NCBI GenBank assembly: GCA_019637855.1
Contig: JAHBUX010000008.1
Location: forward strand, 28,243-92,242
Source of the DNA: Bdellovibrionales bacterium
GTDB lineage: Bacteria; Bdellovibrionota; Bdellovibrionia; Bdellovibrionales; UBA1609
DNA length: 64,000 nt
Direction of reading: 5' to 3'
Numbering within the stretch: position 1 is the first letter of the stretch; every line of letters begins with the position of its first letter. A program made the translations under genes and the position numbers. Shown here piece by piece: positions 8,444-11,371 of the stretch. The notes below the pieces were generated by a model that saw only the letters and a program-made list of their open reading frames with translations, made no database searches and had not been told where the DNA came from.

Positions 8444-8626
8444 TCAGCCATGCGAGCTCACAGTGATCGAACTCCAGTTTTGTGCGTCGAGAACTTTAAA
8501 AACAACGCGCCCGTTGTAGGATCCGCCGAGAGGCCCATTGCCTTGTGAGCTCAGCTCTTCATCGTTTTGTGAGAATTTATTTTTGCCGCAATTTTGAAAC
8601 GAAAGAAGCAGCGAACTCGCAATCAA
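8444..8626 (-). CDS. small putative lipoprotein (about 60 aa)
   Basis: TTG or CTG start. The hydrophobic N-terminus ends in SFQNCG (lipobox-like). It lies 28 nt downstream of the hot-dog gene pair on the same strand. No family recognised. Confidence 0.3.
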   Translation of the reverse strand: MIASSLLLSFQNCGKNKFSQNDEELSSQGNGPLGGSYNGRVVFKVLDAQNWSSITVSSHG

Positions 8627-8654: not shown

Positions 8655-9098
8655 TTATTGTGAAAAGGTGCGCATCTGCGCCTCGGCCAAAATCACATTC
8701 CCCAGCTTTACAATGCCGCGAAATGAGGTGATCGGGCCCATCGCTCGAATGCCGCTAATGTTGCATACTAGAGTGTCGCCACCTTTTACTCGCCGCAAAA
8801 CCTCCGGGGAGGCAAGCTTTACGTCTTTAAAAGCTGCAAGCATGGCCACGCTCATGCCTTTGGAAGTGGGGTCCACATTACGAGTGACCTGGCAGATCCA
8901 CATAAAACCATACGTCTGAGCGATAAACTCAATGAGCGATGAGGAGCGCAAGCCTTCCGGGCTCATGTACAGTGCATTTTCCTTAACATCGATTAGGCAT
9001 TCGCCGGCCGTCGGGCCATAGGCGGTGACCCAATCGATCCACACCATCGGCGGACGATGCGGAATATACTGTTGAATTTCTGCCGCGGAGATTTTCAT
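8655..9098 (-). CDS. FabA/FabZ-like hot-dog fold protein lacking the catalytic His
   Basis: The N-terminal IPHRPPMVWIDWV matches the FabZ LPHRYPFLLVD motif, and the central helix LIEFIAQT keeps the Glu. The GHFP His motif is replaced by SPEG. Confidence 0.7.
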   Translation of the reverse strand: MKISAAEIQQYIPHRPPMVWIDWVTAYGPTAGECLIDVKENALYMSPEGLRSSSLIEFIAQTYGFMWICQVTRNVDPTSKGMSVAMLAAFKDVKLASPEVLRRVKGGDTLVCNISGIRAMGPITSFRGIVKLGNVILAEAQMRTFSQ

Positions 9099-9433
9099 AC
9101 CATCCCCACCTTCAGGCGCAGTGAAGCAATTTTGCGCTCGTGATTGGCGGCCTCACTCCACTCGCACTCCCATTCGCCACCACCCACATCGGACACGTCG
9201 ATATGAACGCGTGCCTGAGGCCCGATTGGCTGCATGAATTTGGCAGACACAACCCCTGCGAGAAACAGCCCTGTGTTACCGGTTTGTTTACGAATAAGCT
9301 CTAGGCTTGCGTCGACAATACCGACGGCAGGAAAAACCGGATTGCCGGGAAAATGACCGGCAAAGTACGGCAGGTCGGCCGGGACGGTCCAATCGGTGTT
9401 CATGTTGGCGAAAACTTTCTGCGTATCGAGCAT
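9095..9433 (-). CDS. FabZ-like 3-hydroxyacyl-ACP dehydratase hot-dog subunit (His-bearing)
   Basis: YFAGHFPGNPVFPAVGIVDASLEL is a FabZ-type GHFP..P motif. The stop overlaps the next start in ATGA (9095-9098). I prefer the ATG at 9433 over the TTG at 9439. Confidence 0.7.
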   Translation of the reverse strand: MLDTQKVFANMNTDWTVPADLPYFAGHFPGNPVFPAVGIVDASLELIRKQTGNTGLFLAGVVSAKFMQPIGPQARVHIDVSDVGGGEWECEWSEAANHERKIASLRLKVGMV

Positions 9434-9484
9434 GCACAAGAGACTAACCTAAGTGCTTTGCCAAATGCAGCGAGAAACTCTAGT

Positions 9485-11371
9485 ATGAAGCCCTGTTGTA
9501 TGATTTTACGAGTCTGTGTCGTAATTCCTTGTTTCAATAACCCGCGCACCATCAGCTCCGTGCTGAAAGACGTTGTCAATAAGACATCCTATCCCATTCT
9601 CGTTTTGGACGACGGTTCCGAGACGCCGGTCACGAATGTGCTGTACTCTTTCGAGGTGCGCCAAGCCTTAGAGCAAGGGCGTCTGCGTGTGGTGCGCTTT
9701 GACGAGAATCGCGGCAAAGGAGCTGTGCTCCGTTATGCCATCCAAGATCTTATGGCCAAGGGTTTCACCCATATGCTCACCATGGACGGCAACGGCCGTC
9801 AGCTGGCTTCGCAAATTCCGAAACTGACGCGGGCGGCGGCCGCCCATCCTTGGGCTTTGATTGTCGGTCGGCGGAATTTGAAAACCGATCCACCGACGCG
9901 AATGCAGCGCTGGGGACGACAGATTCTCAATTTCTGTGTGCGTTTTGAAACGGGTGAATCTTTAAAAGATACCCAGAGTGGATTTCGTATCTATCCTTTG
10001 TTCTCGTTGCAGATGATGCGCTTTCGTACCCGTCGCTACGACTGGGAGATGGAGGCTTTGATTCGTTTGCTGTGGAGTGGTGTGCAAGTGCACGAGGTCG
10101 ATGTCGACACCGCACCGTTTAATGCGAGCGAGCACGTCGTTCACTTTCATCGCATCAAGGATTCACTGCGGTTGTCGCTTTTGAAGCTGGCTCTGATCGC
10201 GGTGTCTTTGGTGCGCACGCACGCCACGGCTTGGGAGCTCGGTCTGTCGGTGGCCGTAGGAGTGTTTGTCGGTGCGACACCGCTGTTTGGATTTCACACT
10301 TTGATTTTGATTGCGTTGGCCTTCGTGCTCCCGCTCAATTTCGTAGCGATGTACATTGGCAGTCACGTGGGCATCCCGGTGTTGATTCCCTTTCTTCTGG
10401 TGGCCGAAGTTTATATCGGACAGGTGTGGTTGGGGATTCCAACGGGCGATGGCCTGATGGGTCACTTTCTGCAGTGGTCGGCGGGGTCCGTTGTGCTGGG
10501 TATGATTTTGGGCGTACCGGCAGGTCTGCTGACCTATTGGGCCGTGCGCACGGCCCAAAATCCTCACGCTGAAGCGGACCTGGCCGCACAACAGGCGGGC
10601 CGTCATCATTTGTTCGTGTGGATCACTGAGACCTTTGGTGTGCGTGCGGCTTATGCGGTCATCCCTTTTGTGGTGGTATGGCGCTACTTAGTGCTGATGC
10701 GCGCTCGTCGAGGCTTGAACGAGTTCTACCGCGTGATGATGCCGGGGCAGGGATTTTTTCGCCGGCAGTTACAGGTGCTCGGTCATTTGCGCCGTTGCGC
10801 TGAGATTCAAGCCGATGGTTTAGCTTTGGCTTGCGGTCGCCACCCGGGAATCATCACCCGCCATGACGGCAATTTGAATGGTTCCGCTCGAGTGGTCATC
10901 TCCGCCCATTTGGGTTCGTGGGAGGCCGCCAGTGCCGCTCTGCAATCCTCGCCGCAGCTTTACTATGGCGATCGTTCGAGCGGGTATCGCTATGAATTGA
11001 TCCCGTTTATGGGCCGCTTGGCGCCGTTTGACGTGACGCCCTTTCAGCAAGCGGCCCGCCTCCAGGCGCCGTTGGCCTTTAGTTTTGGTTTGAAAACTGA
11101 GGGTGGTATTTACGACCTCTTCTCACGCCCGGCGATGTGTTACGAATTTCGCGGCGACACGGCAGAAGACTTGCAAATTTTAGAGTGGGCTAGTCGTTTT
11201 GTGCGTCAGCTGGAATTCTATGTGCGCAAGTACCCCGACCAATGGTTCAACCTCTATCCCTTCTGGTCGGCGCTGCCTCCGCGTCATGAGGTCCATGCGG
11301 GAGTGTTCATGGAGGATCTCGAGCCGGTGCCGCCGCTGCAACCGCAGCGGGGCGCGGACATCAAGACCTAG
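9485..11371 (+). CDS. tri-domain fusion: GT2 glycosyltransferase + DUF2062 membrane domain + LpxL-like acyltransferase
   Basis: The GT2 signature is VVIPCFNN, VLDDGSE and TMDGNG. A multi-TM segment (GVFVGATPLFGFHTLILIALAF) resembles DUF2062. The C-terminal domain carries an H(x)4E acyltransferase motif (AHLGSWE) and ends in KYPDQWFNLYPFW. I chose the ATG at 9485; the upstream part of ORF 9353.. overlaps the divergent gene. Confidence 0.7.
   Translation: MKPCCMILRVCVVIPCFNNPRTISSVLKDVVNKTSYPILVLDDGSETPVTNVLYSFEVRQALEQGRLRVVRFDENRGKGAVLRYAIQDLMAKGFTHMLTMDGNGRQLASQIPKLTRAAAAHPWALIVGRRNLKTDPPTRMQRWGRQILNFCVRFETGESLKDTQSGFRIYPLFSLQMMRFRTRRYDWEMEALIRLLWSGVQVHEVDVDTAPFNASEHVVHFHRIKDSLRLSLLKLALIAVSLVRTHATAWELGLSVAVGVFVGATPLFGFHTLILIALAFVLPLNFVAMYIGSHVGIPVLIPFLLVAEVYIGQVWLGIPTGDGLMGHFLQWSAGSVVLGMILGVPAGLLTYWAVRTAQNPHAEADLAAQQAGRHHLFVWITETFGVRAAYAVIPFVVVWRYLVLMRARRGLNEFYRVMMPGQGFFRRQLQVLGHLRRCAEIQADGLALACGRHPGIITRHDGNLNGSARVVISAHLGSWEAASAALQSSPQLYYGDRSSGYRYELIPFMGRLAPFDVTPFQQAARLQAPLAFSFGLKTEGGIYDLFSRPAMCYEFRGDTAEDLQILEWASRFVRQLEFYVRKYPDQWFNLYPFWSALPPRHEVHAGVFMEDLEPVPPLQPQRGADIKT

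Follow-up and report, generated by a model that had tools for sequence, protein, structure and literature searches.

A 64,000-nucleotide stretch of the genome of a Bdellovibrionales bacterium (hereafter the window; GenBank assembly GCA_019637855.1, contig JAHBUX010000008.1, positions 28,243 to 92,242 of the forward strand) encodes, beside lipopolysaccharide (LPS) genes, a single polypeptide that fuses a family 2 glycosyltransferase (GT2), a DUF2062 membrane segment and an LpxL/LpxM-type acyltransferase, together with a pair of hot-dog proteins. By sequence comparison the fusion protein is a homologue of ApeJ from aryl-polyene (APE) clusters with a DUF2062 membrane insert, so the fusion as such is not new, and ApeI and ApeP are the counterparts of the hot-dog pair. 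The identity and history of the trio are well supported by homology and gene order, which indicate an in situ remnant of a type II polyketide synthase (PKS) cluster of about 20 kb that resembles APE and flexirubin clusters. We consider it probable that this Bdellovibrionota-type ApeJ and its ApeI/ApeP partners were left behind by loss of the cluster in place and that their chemistry is eroding.

Among the biosynthetic gene clusters of Gram-negative bacteria, the APE family is regarded as one of the most widespread. According to the proposed pathway, the GT2 domain of ApeJ adds a sugar to a phospholipid-derived anchor and the LpxL/M-type domain then acylates that sugar with the polyene bound to acyl carrier protein (ACP). 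To our knowledge the roles of ApeJ, ApeD and ApeI/ApeP are known from two model systems only. ApeJ of E. coli and Xenorhabdus has been described as a glycosyl/acyltransferase and ApeD as a separate, PlsC-type acyltransferase of APE clusters (bioRxiv 10.1101/2020.12.19.423268; PMC8253772). The original prediction, made from the sequence of the window alone, was correct about the kinship with APE clusters, as fusion and hot-dog pair match ApeJ, ApeI and ApeP, but wrong in stating that GT2 and lysophospholipid acyltransferase (LPLAT) occur there as separate genes, since ApeJ itself fuses both (10.1101/2020.12.19.423268; PMC8253772).

The proteins of the E. coli CFT073 ape cluster (ApeJ = WP_000115634) were used as reference. 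The GT2 part of the fusion is 34% identical to ApeJ over 232 aa (E = 6e-31) and the acyltransferase C-terminus 34% over 103 aa (E = 4e-11). As in the window, ApeJ of E. coli CFT073 and Xenorhabdus doucetiae joins an N-terminal GT2 to a C-terminal LpxL/M-type acyltransferase in one polypeptide and adjoins ApeI; in relatives of the window the likeness extends to a whole APE-type cluster, with a PlsC-type ApeD directly upstream. The window protein differs from ApeJ by the four-helix DUF2062 insert between the domains, by a shortened acyltransferase core and by DGNGRQ where E. coli has DADGQH, and its genome lacks the PKS, ACP, ApeD and exporter of the cluster. The insert is common to Bdellovibrionota proteins and a Polyangiaceae homologue, and absent from E. 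coli ApeJ. Desulfobulbales, Campylobacterota and Gammaproteobacteria also have GT2-acyltransferase fusions of the ApeJ family, nearly all of them next to genes for ketosynthase (KS), ACP, ketoreductase (KR) and aromatic ammonia-lyase (TAL).

All four motifs on which the original prediction was based (VVIPCFNN, DDGSE, MDGNG and AHLGSWE) are present in the open reading frame (ORF), and the three-part architecture that it proposed is real according to Pfam, profile and structure model. Pfam calls PF00535 (GT2; residues 11-142, E = 2.3e-9, 37.8 bits with a cut-off of 23.3) and PF09835 (DUF2062; residues 242-359, E = 1e-13, 51.9 bits with a cut-off of 27.4), whereas PF03279, the expected acyltransferase family, stays below its cut-off in the window protein (E = 0.13, 11.9 bits versus 22.3) and is also the only match, again sub-threshold, when the C-terminal domain alone is searched against Pfam and NCBIfam. 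A hydropathy scan found four hydrophobic spans in DUF2062, at about residues 252-270, 273-291, 291-309 and 336-354, and one further span where the acyltransferase domain begins, by which both enzymatic domains would lie on the same side of the membrane. The full-length AlphaFold2 model has a pLDDT of 84.4 and a pTM of 0.83, with a pLDDT of about 90 for the GT2 part.

For GT2 and the membrane-proximal part of this model, Foldseek ranks ArnC, GtrB and DPMS first (PDB 9B77, 5EKP and 5MLZ; E 1e-11 to 1e-9, about 360 aligned columns). The same proteins are the top sequence-profile matches (E = 1.5e-10), while the GT2 domain, searched as a single sequence against those of the PDB, gave no match. They share a GT-A fold with juxtamembrane and transmembrane helices, a likeness that implies a lipid-phosphate acceptor at the membrane surface. 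They differ in that identity is about 15%, that the membrane part of the window protein is DUF2062, followed by the extra acyltransferase domain, and that their metal-binding DxD-x-Q reads D-G-N-G-R in the window. GT2 keeps DDGS, and the DxDxQ position corresponds to D101-G-N103-G-R105. In the family profile the consensus 'DGDGQ' aligns with 'DADLQ' of ArnC, so that N103 and R105 replace the second Asp and the Gln of the motif; in the DPMS structure these two residues are metal ligands.

We assign the C-terminal part to the LpxL/LpxM-type acyltransferases, based on a profile match to LpxM, a modelled fold that matches LpxM and PatA, and PF03279 in longer homologues, where it exceeds its threshold (P0008, 44.9 bits). 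A profile of this domain from 18 homologues matches A. baumannii LpxM (5KN7) with E = 6e-7, and the full-length family profile repeats the match with E = 3.9e-6. In the alignment the profile's 'sahlGgwe' falls onto the catalytic 'PHFGTWE' of LpxM, which places H475 and E480 of the window protein, the H-x4-E of its AHLGSWE, onto H122 and E127. The model of residues 372-628 (pLDDT 84) has LpxM (E = 3e-6, TM 0.53) and PatA (TM 0.54) as top Foldseek matches. The likeness to LpxM/LpxL and PatA (PDB 5KN7, 5F2Z) covers residues 372-598 in fold and profile; the sub-threshold PF03279 score and a TM-score of only about 0.5 set the window domain apart. Its C-terminal motifs ELIPFMGRLAPFDVTPF and YPDQWFNLYPFW are conserved, and its C-terminal P-x-Q-W motif matches that of the genuine LpxL encoded in the window. 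The core, however, has lost about 53-57 residues: the deletion lies between ...AASAALQSSP and QLYYGDR, and the core segment has 10 residues here, versus 54-63 in long forms. The missing piece corresponds by profile alignment to about residues 131-190 of LpxM, a stretch of central-sheet strands and helices; E. coli ApeJ and every full-cluster homologue still have it. The window protein thus has the dyad of ApeJ in a core that is no longer complete.

The FabA/ApeI-like protein carries a catalytic His/Asp motif, GHFPGNPVFPAVGIVDAS, and matches PF07977 (E = 5e-8), E. coli ApeI (E = 5e-6) and, with 43% identity, the ApeI of the full cluster in locus L001. The ApeP-like protein lacks the His motif, has PHRPPMVWID and a Glu helix (LIEFIAQT), and matches FabZ models (E about 1e-7) and E. 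coli ApeP (E = 1e-5). Alignment with ApeI and ApeP of E. coli and of the full clusters confirmed that the residues are complementary, with His/Asp in one subunit and the Glu helix in the other. The window pair shares this division with the ApeI/ApeP dehydratase, as well as adjacent, overlapping genes (here in an ATGA); it differs in that the partner KS, KR and ACP are gone and that both proteins score under the cut-offs of the ApeI- and ApeP-like Pfam models (PF22818, E = 0.0024, 18.6 versus 28.5; PF22817, E = 0.15, 12.1 versus 27). These Pfam families are on record for the orthologues in L003, L005 and L006. Since a genome search with PF22817 missed the window's own gene it was too insensitive to be used for counting.

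The history of the trio can be read from its relatives. P0008, 41% identical to the fusion, sits amid a complete APE/flexirubin-like cluster with an AMP-ligase, a halogenase, TAL, three KS and a chain-length-factor (CLF)-type KS, two ACPs, KR, an amine-oxidase-like gene, ApeI, a PlsC-type acyltransferase directly upstream of the fusion, a DUF3261-like gene, AAT, MMPL, LolA, a deacetylase and a methyltransferase. Full clusters also surround the fusion in L008, L009, L012-L016, L018 and L046. The cluster of about 20 kb is flanked by the second heptosyltransferase gene on one side and the gene of the NtrC-type regulator on the other: in L008 the gene just before its start is a GT9 gene with 60% identity to the second heptosyltransferase of the window, and in L009 its end adjoins an NtrC 84% identical to that of the window. 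By these flanks the full cluster fills exactly the interval that in the window holds only three genes. As full clusters occupy the same site in congeners, the position beside the LPS genes is inherited from the full cluster and is no evidence of a role in LPS.

The original prediction had noted that KS, KR and ACP genes are absent, and for an APE-type set this holds for the window as well as for the whole genome, which is 99.98% complete. With all cluster proteins of L001 as tblastn queries, only the housekeeping fabG-acpP-fabF genes and, outside the window, an ammonia-lyase were found in this genome; APE KS/CLF, LolA, MMPL and AAT were not found, and a PF13723 search of the genome gave no match. 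The ammonia-lyase (G000:C25:110893-112299) is 31% identical to the cluster TAL and stands alone; most likely it represents HutH and not a leftover of the cluster. The possibility, already raised in the original prediction, that the trio is a decayed APE remnant has thus been borne out as regards the remnant; the accompanying idea, no conservation elsewhere, does not hold.

Hot-dog pair and fusion occur together in eleven lineages including the window (window, L003 (= L004), L005, L006, L089 (= L098), L090-L094 and L099), always in the order GT9-GT9-ApeP-ApeI-fusion, followed by NtrC/kinase or PFK. In most of these reduced loci ApeP is on the minus strand and ApeI on the plus strand, the layout that three deletions from the gene order of L008 would leave, the three genes being non-adjacent in the full cluster. 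In the clade of the window (window, L003, L005, L006) apeI is inverted and overlaps apeP. In the fusion tree full-cluster proteins are nested among reduced ones, the latter on long branches, and an approximately unbiased (AU) test with 11 reduced and 9 known full-cluster forms rejects the grouping of all reduced forms in one clade (p = 0.0002). The flanking genes agree: in the NtrC tree L009 (full) is sister to L094 (reduced) with support 95, and in the GT9b tree L008 (full) is sister to L099 (reduced) with support 99. Together these trees and the AU test argue that the same reduction happened more than once in the genus, rather than a single origin of the reduced state.

Reduced copies show erosion of catalytic motifs (Table 1). 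All 13 long-form proteins have 54-63 residues between H-x4-D and GDR, with intact H..G.WD and D(G/A)D(G/D/S)Q, and those whose context was checked are all in full clusters; E. coli ApeJ likewise retains this core segment, along with H-x4-E. Reduced copies retain only 4-35 residues in this segment, every one having lost 28-59, a spread of lengths that points to trimming which was repeated or progressive. The acyltransferase dyad, the GT2 DxDxQ motif or both are lost in most reduced copies, the dyad in four of the five members of the window's own clade. Mean identity in the N-terminal half of the acyltransferase domain is 0.34 among reduced versus 0.62 among long forms. At every reduced locus GHFP..P..D is preserved in ApeI, as are PHRPP and the Glu helix in ApeP.

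Table 1. State of the acyltransferase dyad and of the GT2 metal motif.
Protein or locus	Dyad	GT2 motif
Window	H/E	DGNGR
P0003	R/E	DGDGR
P0004	H/R	DGDGR
P0005	H/R	DGDGR
P0015	N/A	APDGT
P0023	H/N	DGDGK
P0025	H/R	DGDGK
P0026	H/Q	DGDGK
P0027	H/R	DGDGK
P0028	H/Q	DGDGK
P0016	H/Q	DADGQ
P0024	H/Q	DANGL
L099	R/K	ENSLP
P0020, P0021	intact	intact

Selection was assessed by comparing the window with L003, which has the same derived deletion and likewise an inverted apeI. The comparison is saturated at synonymous sites (pS 0.63-0.77; about 0.70 for the fusion), for which reason pN is given against pS and ratios are not trusted. The whole fusion has a pN of 0.278 and a dN of 0.35; by parts dN is 0.27 for GT2, 0.41 for DUF2062, 0.52 for residues 361-450 and 0.285 for residues 491-598. 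For comparison, dN is 0.31 for ApeI, 0.27 for ApeP, 0.28 for GT9b, 0.13 for LpxB and 0.07 for NtrC. By these values the fusion ORF is still under purifying selection, with a constraint about as strong as on the neighbouring heptosyltransferase. It is loosest in the N-terminal half of the acyltransferase domain, which is also the least conserved region of the reduced forms.

In other genomes of the genus decay has gone further. G059 has an open ORF of 361 aa (L096:9945-11030) in which a damaged GT2 is joined to the acyltransferase tail without membrane part. G052 has an open 521-aa derivative (L095:8605-10170) without DUF2062, DxD and catalytic His, and the hot-dog genes are absent. G056 keeps ApeI and ApeP, with two ABC-transporter genes in place of the fusion. 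No match to the fusion at E <= 1e-20 was found in the genus genomes G053, G055, G056 and G058. The pair without fusion in G056 and the fusion derivative without pair in G052 imply that the three genes are separable.

Several explanations other than a remnant with eroding chemistry were considered. That the fusion results from a sequencing frameshift or faulty annotation, which joined separate GT2, DUF2062 and acyltransferase genes, can practically be dismissed: the same single-ORF architecture is found in at least 28 protein clusters, at many loci and in independent assemblies and phyla, and E. coli ApeJ fuses both enzymatic domains in a finished genome. The frameshift that the original prediction named as a possible pitfall is thereby ruled out, the architecture being found in dozens of proteins from several phyla. 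A more substantial alternative is the mechanism that the original prediction put forward, an active three-protein module in which ApeI/ApeP would dehydrate (or hydrate) acyl-ACP, the LPLAT would acylate and the GT2 would glycosylate the same envelope lipid, either lipid A or another glycolipid. Although the trio is conserved in eleven lineages beside the lipid A/core block, this adjacency is inherited from the position of the full cluster; although H-x4-E is kept in the window protein, all reduced copies carry the deletion in the acyltransferase core, P0003, P0004/P0005, P0015 and L099 no longer have the dyad, and the DxDxQ of the window, P0015, P0024 and L099 is missing or changed. The ORFs are under purifying selection and the inverted apeI, translationally coupled to apeP in the window clade, is an innovation made while reduced, both of which would fit an active module, yet G056 has the pair without fusion and G052 a fusion derivative without the pair. 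The core deletion of about 53-57 residues, the loss of the dyad in four of the five clade members and the altered metal motif (DGN-G-R) make three-step catalysis unlikely, and we regard the module in this form as quite improbable; the trio rather resembles a conserved but eroding relic.

The opposite extreme, in which the three genes are merely the last pieces that have not yet been deleted and the non-functional fusion is on its way out, would account for the graded series at one site in one genus, from full cluster via trimmed trio to G059, G052 and G056, for the mosaic loss of catalytic motifs and for the long branches of the reduced copies. It is more difficult to reconcile with a frame of 620 codons that stays open across lineages with saturated synonymous sites, with a pN of 0.28, far below the approximately 0.7 expected without constraint, and with three separate deletions that spared the same three non-adjacent genes and recur in separate lineages. 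Moreover the shared derived deletion and apeI inversion imply that the window clade diverged, to 47-57% identity, when it was already reduced. We consider complete loss of function unlikely. The recurrent retention of the same three non-adjacent genes, combined with purifying selection, argues for some residual function of the trio, while the decay series and mosaic motif loss argue that this function is weak or dispensable.

A number of points weigh against our preferred reading of a cluster remnant with eroding chemistry. The decay in three congeners fits plain slow decay as well as retained function. A single reduction, followed by re-acquisition of the full cluster via homologous recombination between congeners, could also underlie what look like independent reductions. 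The constraint on the C-terminal half of the acyltransferase domain, as measured by its dN, shows that this half does something. The window protein keeps both H475 and E480 and AlphaFold still predicts a compact acyltransferase fold; residual acyl transfer, judged from these features, is possible. Finally, the change from D to N in a DxD motif weakens a GT-A enzyme and does not always abolish its activity.

Within the reading of an eroding cluster remnant, the acyltransferase domain would most likely be a catalytically dead vestige with a structural or lipid-binding role. GT2-DUF2062 would be either a pseudoenzyme or, at best, a lipid-phosphate glycosyltransferase of weakened activity that possibly works without metal. 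As the catalytic His/Asp and Glu are intact everywhere, ApeI/ApeP is probably still an active 3-hydroxyacyl-ACP dehydratase, which would have to use intermediates of housekeeping type II fatty acid synthesis (FAS-II). We tentatively entertain a further possibility, that ApeI, ApeP and ApeJ serve envelope-lipid biogenesis independently of the polyene synthase, with ApeJ as membrane pseudoenzyme or scaffold, or as metal-independent lipid-phosphate glycosyltransferase, and active ApeI/ApeP working on housekeeping acyl-ACP. Such a role would explain why separate lineages shed the other approximately 15 cluster genes yet kept these three. The GT2 as producer of a polyprenyl-phosphate sugar for mannosylation of Bdellovibrio-type lipid A was also considered and rejected: no evidence was found for it, and the altered DxD and inherited position are against it.

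The series from full cluster to three-gene remnant and further decay, at a single chromosomal site in one Bdellovibrionales genus, forms a clear case study of a biosynthetic cluster decaying in place. It also holds a testable hint of a possible function of ApeI, ApeP and ApeJ apart from pigment synthesis. For annotation it calls for caution: GT2 and LPLAT domain calls beside lpx genes do not justify naming a protein a lipid A-modifying enzyme, as position and domains are both inherited from an eroded pigment pathway.

The features of the locus are collected in Table 2. The pair is encoded divergently from the fusion, as the original prediction had it. The frame of the fusion is open from 9353 to 11371 (+). 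The original prediction had placed the start at the first ATG of Table 2, and most homologues use the second, MILRV, with which the database copy of the window protein (P0002, 623 aa) also begins. The five codons before MILRV are alike in the window (MKPCC, 9485-9499) and in L003 (MKLCC, L003:8500-8514), and because of this conservation the upstream ATG may be the true start in this sub-clade.

Table 2. Features of the trio locus (window positions; residues of the fusion protein where given).
Feature	Position	Strand	Basis
ApeP-like hot-dog subunit	8655..9098	-	FabZ models, E. coli ApeP match
ApeI-like hot-dog subunit, likely start ATG 9433	9095..9439	-	PF07977, E. coli ApeI match
Divergent intergenic region	9440..9484	.	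one sigma-70-like match
ApeJ-type fusion gene	9485..11371 (628 aa) or from 9500 (623 aa)	+	ORF, homologue starts
GT2 (GT-A) domain, residues ~6-235	9500..10189	+	Pfam PF00535, AlphaFold2/Foldseek, family profile
DUF2062 membrane segment, residues ~236-360	10190..10564	+	Pfam PF09835, hydropathy
Trimmed LpxL/LpxM/PatA-type acyltransferase domain, residues ~372-598	10598..11278	+	profile, AlphaFold2/Foldseek
Acyltransferase-core deletion site	10940..10960	+	alignments

The sigma-70-like match (TTGCCA-17-TAGTAT, 9458-9486, plus strand) is one found versus 2.1 expected by chance and is not evidence of a promoter. Downstream of the fusion follow, on the minus strand, two-component genes for the NtrC-type regulator and a CHASE2 kinase. 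Between the end of apeP and that of the GT9 gene lies an ORF of 60 aa (8444-8626, minus strand) with a hydrophobic start and a Cys (MIASSLLLSFQNCG...). It was rejected as a member of the trio, L003 having no room for it as apeP abuts GT9 there, and by this comparison it is probably not a gene.

The complete cluster of the Pseudobdellovibrionaceae metagenome-assembled genomes (MAGs) deserves mention of its own. It spans L001:1-22091, with the same layout in L008, L009 and L012-L014, and resembles APE/flexirubin or xanthomonadin clusters, with TAL, AMP-ligase, a flavin halogenase, an amine-oxidase-like gene, two ACPs, KS/CLF genes, LolA, MMPL, AAT and a deacetylase. From its gene content, relatives of predatory bacteria would make a halogenated aryl-polyene lipid. 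A literature search for 'aryl polyene' and 'Bdellovibrio' found no paper that describes the reduction or this full cluster. One congener genome, G049 (94% complete, 4% contamination), contains a reduced trio-type fusion (C1:1440-3338) and, on another contig, a second fusion copy beside a PF13723 KS (C147:13824-15641), either as two loci in one organism or by contamination of the bin.

The upstream block, on the plus strand, comprises lpxA, a Gfo/Idh/MocA gene, lpxB, lpxK, lpxL, a DUF3108 gene and two GT9 heptosyltransferase genes. The Gfo/Idh/MocA oxidoreductase gene (1133-2074) overlaps both of its neighbours, lpxA and lpxB, in a position like that of GnnA, and is kept in all related lipid A blocks seen.

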